Virus record (IMG/VR): IMGVR_UViG_2667527976_000007
DNA length: 34,515 nucleotides
Source of the DNA: a virus
Taxonomy: Duplodnaviria; Heunggongvirae; Uroviricota; Caudoviricetes
Strand: one strand, 5' to 3'
The notes beneath the pieces were generated by a model. The model saw only the letters and a list, made by a program, of their open reading frames with translations, was not told the DNA's origin and did no database searches. Below are positions 7,466-12,459 of this stretch, piece after piece. How positions within the stretch are numbered: position 1 is the stretch's first letter; each line of letters begins with the position of its first letter. A program made the position numbers and the translations under genes.

Positions 7466-8377
7466 TTATGCCTCCAGCCCGTTAATCTGTGGCGTCGGCT
7501 CAGTCAGCCATGAAGGCGCGGCATTGCCTGTTGGCTCATCCGGCAGGTCAAATGTGGAGCGCAGGCTACGCGCTGTGCTTTCCAGTTGACAGACCAGGCC
7601 TGCCATGAAGTCTCTGGGGGTATCAATCATGTTTTCAGCACAATATGCGCACAGCGTCTCAAAAGCGCTGGACAGTCGAACGGCGATAGCAGATTCCGCC
7701 TCAACCGCTAATGCTGTCACTTCCGCCCGCAGCTTCTTAACCTCTTCATCAGGCTCAGGCGGCTGAATACGGGATTTCTTCTCCAGTCTGGTGGAGAGTG
7801 AGTCTATTTTTTCATTTTTGTCAGCGAGTACGCGCTGTTGTGCTGCGTTGGTTTCGCGCGCTTCGCGCAGGGCCTGACGCAATTCACGTACTGACATGCG
7901 ATCAACGTCGTCAAGCGTCAGGCCGGCAACTGTGCCGCCGTCGGCCAGTTCGGCAAGCTCTTCGTCGTCTTCTGTCATTAATTCGAAAAGTTTGGCTTTT
8001 CCCAAATGTGCCAACGTTGGCACATTTGGTTTCAGCGCCGGGGATAAGTATTTTGTCGATGCTTGCATCATTCTCACAGATGTCCGGTATGCCAGCCCCA
8101 ACTCACTTTCAAGAATCTTTATAAACTCCCCGTGTGGTTCATTTTCCTTAAGGATTATCAGCCGCTTACCTGCCTCCAGCATGGCCTCAGCGCTCTGTGC
8201 CATATAAAAGCGTGCCTCATGGACAACACGATCGCGCTCATAGGGCAGACCATCGCCGAACTGTTGCATGATTTCCATGCGATGCTGTGTCATGGCGTTT
8301 AGACTGACATTGAGATCATCCGACAGCGGTACCTCGACGTTCAGTTCAGTGCTAACCGGTGATTTGGTGCGTCCCAT
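7466..8377 (-). CDS. DUF3102-like early protein
   Basis: 303 aa; between the regulators and the transposase, a position where Mu-like prophages often carry a DUF3102 protein; assigned by family resemblance only. Confidence 0.45.
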   Translation of the reverse strand: MGRTKSPVSTELNVEVPLSDDLNVSLNAMTQHRMEIMQQFGDGLPYERDRVVHEARFYMAQSAEAMLEAGKRLIILKENEPHGEFIKILESELGLAYRTSVRMMQASTKYLSPALKPNVPTLAHLGKAKLFELMTEDDEELAELADGGTVAGLTLDDVDRMSVRELRQALREARETNAAQQRVLADKNEKIDSLSTRLEKKSRIQPPEPDEEVKKLRAEVTALAVEAESAIAVRLSSAFETLCAYCAENMIDTPRDFMAGLVCQLESTARSLRSTFDLPDEPTGNAAPSWLTEPTPQINGLEA

Positions 8378-8387
8378 TGATTACTCC

Positions 8388-8696
8388 TTACAAACGACTA
8401 CCTGAAATAACACGTTGGTTGATTTCGTTAATGCGATCCTGTGCACGTGCCATCTCGTTACTGTGGGCCATGGCGATCTGCAGCAACTGGATGCCTGGTG
8501 CGAAACGCCCGTTTTCTAGTTTCAGAGCCAACCCTTCTTCAATGAGCGTGTTAAGTGCCCGGTTGATGTTTGCCGGTGATTCGTGCAGTGCAACCGCTAG
8601 TTCCCCGTTAGAAACACCGTTCAAAGCGTGGCCACGTAAGGCCTTAAGAACGCGCAAAATACGGGTACCTGAGCTTGATGTATTTGGTTTATTCAT
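8388..8696 (-). CDS. small HTH DNA-binding protein (102 aa)
   Basis: Winged-helix-like segment 'GVSNGELAVALHESPANINRALNTLIEEGLA'; second gene of the early operon. Confidence 0.5.
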   Translation of the reverse strand: MNKPNTSSSGTRILRVLKALRGHALNGVSNGELAVALHESPANINRALNTLIEEGLALKLENGRFAPGIQLLQIAMAHSNEMARAQDRINEINQRVISGSRL

Positions 8697-8917: not shown

Positions 8918-9005
8918 ATGCACCGTGTTCCTGTTAGGTTATGATGTACTCTATTGGGTCTATTGTACACACCCAAATGAGTGTGTCAAATTGAGATATG
9001 TTCAA
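8918..9005. promoter_or_regulatory. divergent promoter/operator (switch) region between Ner-like and XRE-type genes
   Basis: 88-bp AT-rich spacer between divergent start codons; contains inverted repeat ACACAC(8967-8972)/GTGTGT(8981-8986) with an 8-bp spacer and a TGTAC direct repeat. Confidence 0.5.
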
Positions 9006-9413
9006 ATGAGTACAAAAGAGAGATTGCGTGAAGTGATGGATGCTAATGGCATGACAATAAAGGCATTATCTAACTTATCAAAAATTCCATATCGCTCACT
9101 TCAAAACTATTTGCGTGGAGAGAGAGAACCAAACGCAGAGGCTCTTGTTGCGCTAAGCACCCATTTGGGTGTATCGATCGATTGGCTACTTACCGGTAAA
9201 GAACATATTCCATCTAAAGAAATTGTTGCTGTACCAACACAACATCAATTCAGCCCGTCAGACCTTAAAATGCTTGAACTTCTAAACCAGTTAGATCCTG
9301 AGGTTCGGCGAGATCTCATGCGAGGCGCTGAAGAAAAACAGCGTGTGATTGAGATGGAAAAACAACTGAAGGAATTATCCGCAACGATTGAGCGGTTAAA
9401 AAATGTGGGTTAA
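9006..9413 (+). CDS. XRE-family HTH regulator (candidate prophage repressor or regulator of the adjacent cargo operon)
   Basis: Internal ATG at 9006 of ORF 8910..9413; HTH_XRE-like N-terminus '...MTIKALSNLSKIPYRSLQNYLRGEREPNAEALVALSTHLGVSIDWLL' and a C-terminal coiled-coil-like tail; AT-rich like the downstream operon. Confidence 0.65.
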   Translation: MSTKERLREVMDANGMTIKALSNLSKIPYRSLQNYLRGEREPNAEALVALSTHLGVSIDWLLTGKEHIPSKEIVAVPTQHQFSPSDLKMLELLNQLDPEVRRDLMRGAEEKQRVIEMEKQLKELSATIERLKNVG

Positions 9414-9483
9414 TGTGTTCCTAACGAGAACATATAGCAGAAATTATTTGCCATTAAGCAATAAAAAATAAGGTGGATAGCTA

Positions 9484-10491
9484 ATGTCTGAGCAGACCAT
9501 TGAAGTTAAACACGTTGTAGTTCACATTTTAGACAAACAACAAAATGGAGACGCTTCTGAGAGATTGAGTCCTGAAGAAGGTCTAGTTACTGAAGCCTCC
9601 CAGCGCCTTATAAACGATATTTGTGCAAAATATGCAGGACGCACAGGTAAAGGTTATGGCTATTTTGAAGGCGATACGGATAACTATCCTATGGAACGAA
9701 TGGCTGGGGACTTTCTCGAAGGTGTTGATGATTTCTACCAAAGTTCCTGCCGAATGATGCATCACCTGACGGAACGTTCTCAGCGAGAAAACATGGCTAC
9801 TGGTGGTTATGTTCTTTTTGCAAATATCGTGATAGGACACAATGAACACCTGTTGATAGCTATTGTAAGCGCTACCATTGGATCCACTGTCACAGATGAT
9901 TTTAACATCCAAGATAGTACCTATCTTGATATTGCTAAGCTGCGTATGGCTGGGCGCATTGACTTAACCGCGTGGGAAAGTGGCGCAGAGCGCTATATCA
10001 GTTTTCTTAAGGGGCAAGGTAATGTTTCAAACTATTTTAAACAGTTCCTCGGCTGTAATGATGTCTTAATCGCCAAACGAGAGTCTGAAAAGTTACGTGA
10101 CGTTTTAAAAGCATTTGCGGCAGAGAAAGGACTTGACGGCGCTGAAAAAGATGCATTTCTTAAGAGTGCGTTTGAACACTTACATGCACTAAGTAAGGCT
10201 GGTGAACCACTTAGTCTTGAAACCCTTGTTAATGCCATTTGGCCCCAGGCTCCCGAGGAGTTATCTGGTAAACTTGCTGCTGAAGAGTTGGAGTTATCGG
10301 ATGGCTTCGTTCCTGATGGTCGAGTCATTCGGGCTCTGGTATCTTTTAAAGGCAAGTCTAAATATTGGGAACTTAAGTTTGACCGGGAAGGGAAAACTGA
10401 AGGCTATATTGATTATGATCCGGAAACAAATATTATCACCCTACGTAATGTACCTGAAGAATTTAGGGAAATGTGGATGACTGAGGTTTAA
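9484..10491 (+). CDS. YejK/NdpA-like nucleoid-associated protein (NA37 family) homologue
   Basis: 335 aa, the same length as E. coli YejK; blocks 'YLDIAKLRMAGRIDLTAWESGAERYISFLKG' and C-terminal 'YDPETNIITLRNVPEEF' parallel YejK blocks as I recall them; AAGGTGG RBS upstream; markedly AT-rich. Confidence 0.6.
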   Translation: MSEQTIEVKHVVVHILDKQQNGDASERLSPEEGLVTEASQRLINDICAKYAGRTGKGYGYFEGDTDNYPMERMAGDFLEGVDDFYQSSCRMMHHLTERSQRENMATGGYVLFANIVIGHNEHLLIAIVSATIGSTVTDDFNIQDSTYLDIAKLRMAGRIDLTAWESGAERYISFLKGQGNVSNYFKQFLGCNDVLIAKRESEKLRDVLKAFAAEKGLDGAEKDAFLKSAFEHLHALSKAGEPLSLETLVNAIWPQAPEELSGKLAAEELELSDGFVPDGRVIRALVSFKGKSKYWELKFDREGKTEGYIDYDPETNIITLRNVPEEFREMWMTEV

Positions 10492-10493
10492 TC

Positions 10494-11699
10494 GTGGCGA
10501 TTTCATTTGAGATGCTGACAGATCTGTATCGTCGTATGGAATTCCAAGAGGGGTTTCGTGTCGGTTCGCTGTTGCTCTTAGATCAGTCCGATTGTGATCT
10601 GGTTGATACTTTGCTTGATGATCCTCGTGAATATGGTCTTTCTATTGATACAGGCACTATCGCTCCAGGTAACACGATCATCCTACGTGTGACGTCACCA
10701 CGGAGTGGACTGGGACTTGTGTTTTCCACCCATGAAAAATTGCTAAATGCTCCAAAGCATCAGTGCCTTGAGCCAGCTAATTACTTCATCCTAGAAACAA
10801 AGTTTCGTAATGATGATGAAGATATCCCCGTTTTCATCAGCAACTACCGGAAGATTCTCGAGTTCGTTAACCTGCTAAAAGAGGCCGCGGCCTACTTTGA
10901 TAACTCAACTTGTCAGTTAGTTTTTCTGAAAAAAGAAGTTATCAAGCTATTACCGCACTTCGCTGCAGAAAATGTACAAAATTTGCAAAGAGAGTATCTT
11001 GATAACCTTATAGCTTGTTTCAATGATGATACCCATAAGGATCAGAAGCTAGATATTCTGATTGAAAGTATCCAAGCAGTTAGTGATGGAATTGATTCAC
11101 CTCTAGTATTCGCTTATTTACTGGACAATATTCAGCGTCTGCATGAAAAGTTTCTGAAAGGGTATCGTATCTACTCTTCTGGATTCTCTTATGACAAAGT
11201 AATGGATCAACTGCGTGCTGCAAAAGTCGAAGAAATGGGTAAAATCCACAAAGCGTTTTCAGATATCCAGAACCATATACTTGGCATTCCTGTTGCCTCT
11301 GTTATCGTAGCTACCCAATTCAAAGTGGCTACGAAATGGTCAGGCCAAGGGATAACAAACACAATAATTCTTCTGGGATGCATTTTTGCTGCAACGTTAA
11401 TCTGGCTGGCACTTTCGAACCAGATGCAATCTATAAAGGCCTTAGGCGAAGAAATTGAATACAAAGAAAAACAGATTAATAAGGAATATTCCTTCATTAA
11501 AGATGACGTGGCTGGTGTATTTAGCAGTATTTCTGCGCGACTAGACACGCAGAAACGTACGTTCTGGATTATACGTGGTGTTCTAGTTATGGGAATTATT
11601 ACCGCTATCACTGTTTATTTTTGGTACACAAAACCAGCCCTTGACTTCATGCAGTACTTGATTCACTGCATGAAGTCTTACTATTCGGTCAAAAGTTGA
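10494..11699 (+). CDS. uncharacterised protein with soluble N-terminal domain and two C-terminal TM helices
   Basis: GTG start 2 nt after the upstream TAA (translational coupling); predicted TM helices at about residues 287-307 and 357-377; no recognisable catalytic motif; AT-rich. Confidence 0.55.
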   Translation: MAISFEMLTDLYRRMEFQEGFRVGSLLLLDQSDCDLVDTLLDDPREYGLSIDTGTIAPGNTIILRVTSPRSGLGLVFSTHEKLLNAPKHQCLEPANYFILETKFRNDDEDIPVFISNYRKILEFVNLLKEAAAYFDNSTCQLVFLKKEVIKLLPHFAAENVQNLQREYLDNLIACFNDDTHKDQKLDILIESIQAVSDGIDSPLVFAYLLDNIQRLHEKFLKGYRIYSSGFSYDKVMDQLRAAKVEEMGKIHKAFSDIQNHILGIPVASVIVATQFKVATKWSGQGITNTIILLGCIFAATLIWLALSNQMQSIKALGEEIEYKEKQINKEYSFIKDDVAGVFSSISARLDTQKRTFWIIRGVLVMGIITAITVYFWYTKPALDFMQYLIHCMKSYYSVKS

Positions 11700-12459
11700 G
11701 GATAATGAGTTCCTTCTTGCGACTGGATTTGCCAGTGATCTTGAGGTTGTAGCTGATATCAACCGACTGAATATTTAGACCGTTGAATGCCTGCCGCATT
11801 TCCGGGATATCGTTCACCGATATAATCATCTTCCCTTTGATCCTGCGTGCTAAATCTGCCATATGATCATAATTTTCTAGTCCGAACTCCACACCATAAC
11901 CTTCCGTTCCCCAGTATGGAGGGTCACAGTAGAACAACGTATGCGGGCGATCATATCGTTCTATGCACTGTTGCCAGTCCATGTGTTCTATGACCGTTCT
12001 GGAAAGCCGCAGGTGTGCCGCTGACAGTTCTTCTTCAATACGCAGCAGGTTGAAGCGTGGCGGGGATATGGTGGAGGTACCAAAGCTGTGCTCCGCCACC
12101 TTGCCTCCAAACGCCTGCTTCTGAAGGTAGTAGAACCGTGCTGCACGCTGGATATCCGTCAGTGTTTCTTCCGGGGTGATCTGCAGCCATTTGTAGATCT
12201 GCCGGCTGACCAGCGCCCATTTGAACTGGCGTACAAATTCTTCCAGATGATGTTTTACCACCCGATACAGGTTCACCAGTTCACCGTTGATATCATTAAT
12301 GACTTCGATCTTGCCGGGTACCTTAAGAAAATAGAGCGCTGCTGCCCCACAAAACGGCTCCACATAACATTCATGCGCCGGAAACAGCGGCAGGATGTGT
12401 TTTGCAAGGCGGCGTTTGCCACCAATCCATGGAACGATGGGTAATGTCTGCATTTTCAT
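11689..12459 (-). CDS. DNA N6-adenine methyltransferase (Dam/D12-class family)
   Basis: 256 aa; N-terminal 'VEPFCGAAALYF' (SAM-binding motif I) and catalytic 'DPPY' motif; convergent with the cargo operon, overlapping its end by 11 nt. Confidence 0.8.
   Translation of the reverse strand: MKMQTLPIVPWIGGKRRLAKHILPLFPAHECYVEPFCGAAALYFLKVPGKIEVINDINGELVNLYRVVKHHLEEFVRQFKWALVSRQIYKWLQITPEETLTDIQRAARFYYLQKQAFGGKVAEHSFGTSTISPPRFNLLRIEEELSAAHLRLSRTVIEHMDWQQCIERYDRPHTLFYCDPPYWGTEGYGVEFGLENYDHMADLARRIKGKMIISVNDIPEMRQAFNGLNIQSVDISYNLKITGKSSRKKELIILNF

Follow-up and report, generated by a model that had tools for sequence, protein, structure and literature searches.

Gene content of the cassette

We analysed a 34,515-nucleotide (nt) stretch of tailed-phage DNA (Caudoviricetes; IMG/VR record IMGVR_UViG_2667527976_000007), referred to here in its whole length as the window, which carries beside its repressor gene an AT-rich cassette of two genes that probably encodes an anti-phage system. 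The window is a BcepMu-like Escherichia coli prophage with Mor, Gam, MuB-like, MuA-like and Ner-like genes and a CI-like repressor, followed by lysis genes and Mu-type head genes. Positions 1-529 belong to host adiC (its 3' end; 98.7% identity to other E. coli), so this copy of the prophage lies directly downstream of adiC. In strain RIVM_C036569, a prophage with a 100% identical cassette is inserted at hyf/hycH, and the two sites are consistent with the random insertion of Mu-type phages. The first open reading frame (ORF) of the cassette, ORF A, encodes a YejK-like nucleoid-associated protein (NAP), and the second, ORF B, encodes a membrane protein with two predicted transmembrane (TM) helices. 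The features of the locus, with the basis of each, are as follows.

9434..11707, no strand: AT-rich cargo cassette of 2,274 bp in the slot 3' of the repressor gene (blastn breakpoints; GC fraction 0.38-0.43)
9484..10491, + strand: ORF A, 335 amino acids (aa), ATG start, YejK-like nucleoid-associated protein and putative DNA-bound sensor (Shine-Dalgarno (SD) sequence AAGGTGG at 9470-9476; family matches)
10483..10496, + strand: translational-coupling junction (GAGG, 2 nt, TAA, 2 nt, GTG)
10494..11699, + strand: ORF B, 401 aa, GTG start, membrane protein and putative effector (phrog_5023, DS1_2, AlphaFold2 (AF2) model)
10494..11189, + strand: ORF B residues 1-232, predicted cytoplasmic alpha/beta domain and putative NAP receptor ('DMK'-like) (AF2, net charge)
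11190..11342, + strand: ORF B residues 233-283, most conserved segment, predicted long helix into the membrane (conservation, AF2 helix 233-275)
11346..11627, + strand: ORF B residues 285-378, predicted TM1 (285-311), helical hairpin loop (312-355) and TM2 (356-378) (Kyte-Doolittle, AF2)
11643..11677, no strand: perfect 13-bp inverted repeat with a 9-nt loop (repeat search; RNA fold)
9006..9413, + strand: CI-type prophage repressor gene, 70 nt upstream of ORF A (HTH_3 / Phage_CI_repr)
11689..12459, - strand: Dam-type methyltransferase gene, convergent with ORF B (3' overlap with ORF B)

The two genes are tightly linked. At their junction, an SD-like GAGG (10483-10486) is followed by TT, the TAA stop codon of ORF A (10489-10491), TC and the GTG of ORF B (10494), which leaves a stop-to-start gap of 2 nt and places GAGG 7 nt ahead of the GTG. 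This start is backed by near-invariant F5, L8 and Y12 in an alignment of 52 ORF B homologues and by the RefSeq annotation of identical copies, where the same two coding sequences appear as WP_000003711.1 ('nucleoid-associated protein') and WP_001007985.1 ('hypothetical protein'). Compared with three orthologous copies (Mixta, Brenneria and Pectobacterium), the ratio of nonsynonymous to synonymous substitution rates (dN/dS) is 0.035-0.037 for ORF A and 0.07-0.09 for ORF B. Both ORFs are real genes under strong purifying selection. The GC fraction is 0.38-0.43 across 9001-12000 versus 0.55-0.60 in the prophage backbone, and the AT-rich block also takes in the repressor gene (9006-9413).

We found that ORF A is a full-length protein of the NA37/YejK family, and its family membership suggests that it binds DNA. 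Residues 12-327 match Pfam NA37 (PF04245) over positions 1-324 of the 325-position profile (E = 1e-80, 272.1 bits, cutoff 24.6), and at E ≤ 0.1 no other Pfam family matched. ORF A also matches phrog_3767, 'nucleoid associated protein' (E = 7e-117), and in a phmmer comparison its residues 4-330 match the solved YejK structure 9be2_A (E = 6.8e-30). Over its full length it is 28% identical to YejK of E. coli MG1655, likewise a protein of 335 aa, and the isoelectric points are close (4.9 for ORF A and 4.88 for genuine YejK). ORF A misses the NCBIfam YejK equivalog NF001557 (186.2 bits against a cutoff of 341) and is therefore a divergent paralogue rather than the housekeeping yejK.

ORF B matches phrog_5023, a family of unknown function (E = 6e-143), and no Pfam family, SLATT and RexA/B included, matched at E ≤ 0.1. 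Its AF2 model, built on a 52-sequence alignment, has a pLDDT (predicted local distance difference test score) of 82.9. In this model, the N-terminal alpha/beta domain (residues 1 to ~230; pLDDT mostly 82-93) is confidently predicted to be a new fold, and searches of PDB and BFVD returned no structural relative of ORF B. Three long modelled helices follow (233-275, 284-331 and 333-378). Hydrophobic segments lie at ~285-311 and 356-378 (Kyte-Doolittle windows >1.6 for TM1 and TM2), within helices 284-331 and 333-378, with a marginal segment at 262-280. The C-terminal region is thus a predicted two-helix membrane hairpin, and exactly two strong hydrophobic segments are present in 47 of the 52 homologues. 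Within the hairpin region, G295, N309, Q310, E320, R349 and G367 are invariant in the family.

Conservation among the 52 homologues is also concentrated ahead of the hairpin, where invariant or near-invariant columns extend from G223 to K277. The conserved segment carries the motif FSYDK...AKVEEMGKIHK.FSDIQN.ILGIPVATVIVATQ. The N-terminal domain is modestly acidic: residues 1-260 of ORF B have a net charge of -12, and all 52 homologues carry a net negative charge over residues 1-232 (median -7).

Up to this point, our data agree well with a first-pass annotation of the same DNA. Its coupled ORFs of 335 and 401 aa are supported by the ORF calls, the junction and the RefSeq coding sequences, and its statement that both are richer in AT than the backbone is confirmed, with the repressor gene belonging to the same block. 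It had further described a YejK-like first protein of YejK length, for which it predicted the NA37 match that we obtained by profile search, and a second protein with a large soluble N-terminal domain and two C-terminal TM helices, as hydrophobicity and the AF2 model now also indicate.

Kiwa was considered as a relative of ORF B. The PADLOC model of KwaA matched ORF B (E = 8e-5) in the TM region only and, across the family, no more than 2 of the 52 members; we judged this match compositional, and the partner gene in the window is NA37 rather than the Kiwa partner KwaB (DUF4868). As a separate observation, Cupriavidus loci (L052-L054; for example L052, positions 7992-8618) contain a lone 208-aa ORF that corresponds to residues ~191-392 of ORF B only, at 44% identity. 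It has no N-terminal domain, has no NAP gene nearby and adjoins a nitrilase-like gene. This ORF is either a remnant or a free-standing membrane module, and several ORF B-family representatives of 165-270 aa resemble it.

Accessory status, expression and spread of the gene pair

We used blastn to define the edges of the cassette. Homology to Klebsiella phage KP12 and to E. coli 1438 prophages ends at 9433 and resumes at 11708, and homology to Mu-like prophages of Brenneria and Pectobacterium, which have other repressors, begins at 9457. The right breakpoint falls inside the last codons of dam, which overlaps ORF B by 11 nt at the 3' ends (11689-11699), so the C-terminal residues of dam travel with the cassette. 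In the right junction zone (11635-11708) lies the 13-bp inverted repeat, and apart from it no flanking direct repeats or recombination sites were found at the cassette edges.

We next asked how often related prophages carry the cassette. Among 5,426 complete E. coli genomes, 562 (approximately 10%) contain a related switch/dam region. The cassette is present in 19 of these prophages and absent from the other 543, which indicates that it is accessory and not needed for lytic growth. In the remaining prophages, the slot is empty, which is the commonest form (e.g., JJ2434), or holds other cargo: a lipoprotein of 175-177 aa; a 297-aa soluble protein with a 114-aa protein of three TM regions; or a 328-aa single-TM protein with a 203-aa protein and a DUF2441 protein. 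These cargos lie on the repressor strand and have a GC fraction of 0.38-0.43, except for the DUF2441 gene (0.49). None matched a PADLOC or NCBIfam model, and Pfam gave DUF2441 only. Homologous Mu-like prophages therefore hold differing genes or nothing at this site and the pair is not universal, the comparison that the first-pass annotation had named as a check on its cargo proposal. Our data indicate that BcepMu-like prophages have a swap site 3' of the repressor, and its alternative cargos are candidates for undescribed defence or exclusion genes.

Elsewhere, the cassette occupies different positions. In two Mu-like IMG/VR contigs (L072 and L083) it lies on the other side of dam, in the order repressor, dam, NAP, ORF B and holin, and in an Acinetobacter locus (L056) it lies between the terminase and portal genes. 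These differing positions indicate that the cassette was inserted at more than one place in Mu-like genomes.

The ORF A/ORF B pairing is near-obligate and the two proteins co-diverge. We found 704 representative clusters of the ORF B family at E ≤ 1e-3, with hosts among the Gamma-, Beta- and Alphaproteobacteria. Of 59 genomic loci, 56 have an NA37 gene in the same orientation immediately before the ORF B homologue. In 44 of 49 IMG/VR viral contigs the NA37 gene is likewise directly upstream; in three more it lies slightly further off, and two contigs are truncated. The paired genes overlap or are separated by ≤10 nt in 47 of 49 pairs. In a mirror-tree comparison, the distances of the two proteins correlate with r = 0.916 (Mantel 0/2000), and among distant pairs with r = 0.72.

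The contexts of the pair are diverse. Mu-like flanks are present at approximately 7 of the 59 genomic loci and at least 16 of the 49 viral loci. Other neighbours, as raw counts, include integrases, resolvases, antiterminator Q, holins, P2 tail genes and conjugation genes, together with restriction-modification enzymes, AbiEii, AAA_15/21, MqsR and Shedu SduA_C. The pair therefore also occurs in non-Mu phages, integrative and conjugative elements (ICEs) and defence islands. It is rare among sequenced virions and plasmids, with six records in each collection.

The end of the repressor gene (9413) is separated by 70 nt from the start of ORF A (9484), and both genes are read from one strand. Between these positions, we found neither a terminator-like site nor a strong promoter, and it is reasonable to suppose that read-through from the repressor operon transcribes the cassette in lysogens. 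Promoter-like sites in the region number 10, compared with 7.2 ± 3.0 in shuffled sequences; since they are no more frequent than in shuffles, we claim no promoter for the cassette itself. The repressor operon is the probable source of lysogenic transcription. At the other end, the inverted repeat falls within the final codons of ORF B, with the stop codon of the convergent dam gene 12 nt away, and folds as RNA with -20.2 kcal/mol (z = -3.4) on the + strand and -25.0 kcal/mol (z = -4.4) on the - strand. It may be a bidirectional terminator or a junction element of the cassette. Separately, a near-consensus sigma-70 promoter lies at 8962-8989 on the - strand (TTGACA, 16 nt, TACAAT; 11 of 12 positions). 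Within the 82 bp that separate the repressor gene from the divergent early (Ner-like/transposase) operon, it is directed towards that operon and probably serves as the switch's promoter for early lytic transcription.

A putative nucleoid sensor and membrane effector

We then compared the cassette with experimentally studied systems. DefensePredictor (Science 2026, PMC13092281) validated a two-gene anti-phage system of E. coli, DS-1, and lists the 'YejK nucleoid-associated domain' among the domains newly validated in defence. DS-1A (WP_000355468.1, 391 aa) has NA37 at residues 42-382 behind a Zn-ribbon-like N-terminus, DS-1B (WP_000150292.1) has 404 aa, and their genes (220602-221777 and 221780-222994) are separated by 2 nt. 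In the screen of that study, DS-1 lowered plating by 7.6 logs for Bas1, 2.7 for Bas26 and 1.7 for Bas3 and T3 (PMC13092281).

Both proteins of the window are recognisably related to DS-1. NCBIfam holds two DS-1 models, DS1_1_antiphage ('nucleoid-associated anti-phage protein') and DS1_2_antiphage (NF053868/NF053869). ORF A matches DS1_1 with E = 1.4e-17 (63.7 bits; equivalog cutoff of 330 not reached) and ORF B matches DS1_2 with E = 3e-21 (75.9 bits; equivalog cutoff of 315 not reached). By BLASTP, ORF A is 23% identical to DS-1A over 196 aa (E = 8e-9), and ORF B is 23% identical to DS-1B over 302 aa (E = 6e-10; residues 74-355). DS1_2 is matched by all 52 diverse ORF B homologues (best E = 2.4e-27), and hhalign gives the ORF B family and DS-1B a probability of 95.8%. 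The best aligned zone between ORF B and DS-1B comprises the conserved segment 233-283 and the TM hairpin. The corresponding N-terminal charge in DS-1B is -7. Given identities of approximately 23% and scores far under the equivalog cutoffs, the window pair appears to be a separate, currently unannotated subfamily.

A second class of relatives was defined in a preprint of April 2026 as 'PANGU' systems (bioRxiv 10.64898/2026.04.06.716658). Type II PANGU is bicistronic and consists of a YejK-like NAP, Pag2A, and a transmembrane effector, Pag2B, in which an acidic, DNA-mimicking 'DMK' domain at the N-terminus is followed by a C-terminal TM domain. In the E. coli example, PANGU-Ecu, both genes are needed, neither is toxic alone, infection is abortive, and the dissociation constant (KD) between the NAP and the DMK domain is 19 nM. 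Abortive infection by type II is triggered by phage-induced degradation of the host genome. In both PANGU types the NAP departs from the nucleoid upon T4 infection and denA-null T4 escapes, and T1 and T5, though they degrade host DNA, are not restricted by the two PANGU systems tested. The distribution of type II is described as wide and horizontal, and prophages are mentioned nowhere in the preprint (10.64898/2026.04.06.716658).

Our data suggest that the cassette is a distant subfamily relative of E. coli DS-1 with the architecture of type II PANGU. We estimate a probability of approximately 75% that it is a prophage-encoded two-component anti-phage (abortive-infection) system, with a NAP sensor and a membrane effector, a function assigned through homology. 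Our confidence in the detailed mechanism is lower than in the defence assignment. We hypothesized that, in a lysogen, the two genes would be co-expressed, probably via read-through from the repressor operon, and translationally coupled. ORF A, like YejK, would coat chromosomal DNA, and ORF B would be inactive, anchored to the inner membrane by the helical hairpin at its C-terminus and with the N-terminal domain facing the cytoplasm. Destruction of the host chromosome by a superinfecting lytic phage would free ORF A, which could then bind the N-terminal domain of ORF B. This would switch on the conserved helix and TM module, presumably through oligomerisation and membrane permeabilisation, and the infected cell would cease to support the phage. 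The co-divergence of the two proteins (r = 0.916) offers indirect support for such joint action. A Mu-type phage needs an intact host chromosome as its transposition target, which suggests that such a sensor should not harm the lytic cycle of the prophage itself. We infer by analogy that the behaviour of the relatives carries over to the window subfamily and that the effector acts on the membrane.

Several observations weigh against this proposal. The defence role of the window cassette is drawn from homology, and at approximately 23% identity to DS-1 and with scores of 64 bits (cutoff 330) and 76 bits (cutoff 315), the function could have diverged. ORF A lacks the Zn-ribbon-like N-terminal extension of approximately 40 aa found in DS-1A (335 versus 391 aa), and PADLOC 2023 has no model for either ORF. 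The likeness to type II PANGU is one of architecture only, compared by description. The acidity of the ORF B N-terminal domain is modest and not clearly above what an ordinary cytoplasmic protein shows. The case for co-transcription with the repressor is built on a lack of signals. Finally, the PANGU preprint itself leaves open how the NAP activates Pag2B and how the effector acts (10.64898/2026.04.06.716658).

We reasoned that a Mu-type phage might instead employ the pair for its own housekeeping, with a YejK-like NAP and a membrane partner that organise or tether DNA during transposition, replication or packaging. Mu-type transposition uses host nucleoid proteins, the cassette is a neighbour of the lysogeny switch and of the early/transposition region, and Mu-like phages account for at least 16 of the 49 viral contigs with the pair. 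These points are outweighed by the rarity of the cassette (19 of 562 related E. coli prophages, with the empty slot commonest), by its location on the repressor strand and not in the early operon, by its homology to a validated defence system and by the presence of the pair in non-Mu phages, near lambdoid Q/holin and P2 tail genes, on conjugative elements and in defence islands. We regard a housekeeping role as very improbable. The related idea in the first-pass annotation, that the phage supplies a NAP for transpososome assembly, fits poorly with the same cassette in non-transposable phages, ICEs and islands. An addiction or superinfection-exclusion module is somewhat easier to entertain, and still unlikely. 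On this reading, ORF B would act as a membrane toxin or block injection, with ORF A as antitoxin or regulator, and the pair would serve to stabilise the prophage or to keep out related phages instead of sensing genome damage. The tightly coupled two-gene layout with a membrane protein is of this kind, as are the lipoprotein and membrane proteins, typical of exclusion, in the slot of related prophages. Yet the type II PANGU genes are singly non-toxic and are both required, unlike a toxin and its antitoxin; the large DNA-binding NAP fold is conserved at full length, beyond what a simple antitoxin would need; and the Pfam neighbour counts indicate defence islands besides prophages.

A defence system of the same kind with another trigger or another action is quite possible, if clearly less probable than not. 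ORF A could sense phage DNA, replication intermediates or a phage protein, and ORF B could signal without permeabilising the membrane. DS-1 itself, to which the cassette is just ~23% identical, acted most strongly in the recorded screen against Bas1, which is not a T-even phage, T1 and T5 go unrestricted by two PANGU systems despite degrading host DNA, and no function has been assigned to residues 223-283, where ORF B is most conserved. Against such a variant, the relocalisation of the NAP and the escape of denA-null T4 in both PANGU types suggest a shared sensing logic. Overall, we favour a NAP sensor with a membrane effector in abortive infection because the cassette is accessory, the pair is found in a range of mobile contexts, and both proteins are homologous to those of DS-1. 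The first-pass annotation had likewise pointed to a defence or abortive-infection module. This part fits the experiments on homologous DS-1 and on architecturally similar type II PANGU, and in the window it is supported by homology only. Its remark that the pairing was not a described system no longer holds, given the 2025-2026 publications on DS-1 and type II PANGU.

A broader proposal is more tentative, and we would place it a little short of an even chance. The pair may represent a large, separate and unannotated branch (704 clusters) of immunity by NAP sensors and membrane effectors that is typically phage-borne and expressed in a Rex-like manner from the repressor operon; the BcepMu-like slot may be a defence hotspot with further undescribed systems; and the trigger or membrane action may differ from those of PANGU. 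If our main interpretation is correct, temperate transposable phages also carry, beside the repressor, the strategy of guarding genome integrity with a nucleoid protein, and this position would shield the lysogen and its prophage from competing lytic phages. A sizeable subfamily is left unnamed by current defence-annotation models. The swap site belongs to a prophage family that approximately 10% of complete E. coli genomes contain, and further defence genes could be sought there. The cassette also offers a compact natural example for studying how membrane effectors of this kind become activated.

Comparison with known systems

Chromosomal YejK (E. coli b2186; PDB 9be2) and ORF A belong to a common fold family and share their length and similar acidity. 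In MG1655, yejK is annotated without a partner gene of this type, while ORF A is mobile, AT-rich and paired. DS-1 and the window cassette are alike in having the NA37 gene first, a 2-nt gap and a partner of approximately 400 aa (404 versus 401 aa). The hydrophobic helices of DS-1B likewise lie in the C-terminal third and are weaker than those of ORF B.

Type II PANGU and the window share a bicistronic arrangement of a YejK-like NAP and a TM protein, and the window effector has the same domain order as Pag2B. Unlike type II PANGU as described, the window cassette is phage cargo beside a repressor. It could be the tested PANGU-Ecu itself, a close relative of it or a separate branch. Type I PANGU (Pag1A with the GRel toxSAS Pag1B) uses the same class of sensor, and there too the NAP, once released, binds an effector domain that mimics DNA. 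The type I effector is a soluble alarmone synthetase, whereas ORF B has no toxSAS domain by Pfam. Beyond the DefensePredictor and PANGU papers, we found nothing specific in the literature on NA37 or on defence hotspots of Mu-like phages. The pairing is already known, and what we add is the definition of a 2.27-kb cassette, the repressor-side swap site, the size of the unannotated subfamily and its frequent carriage by phages.

In the Rex exclusion system of phage lambda, the cytoplasmic sensor RexA and the membrane protein RexB are co-transcribed with the repressor and cause abortive infection by membrane depolarisation. The protein sizes and folds of RexAB differ from those of ORF A and ORF B, and neither ORF has a Pfam match to RexA or RexB at E ≤ 0.1. 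The lambda cI-rexA-rexB arrangement is a positional and logical analogue of the window cassette: in both, a two-gene module of a sensor and a membrane effector (both putative in the window) lies just 3' of the repressor gene on the same strand.

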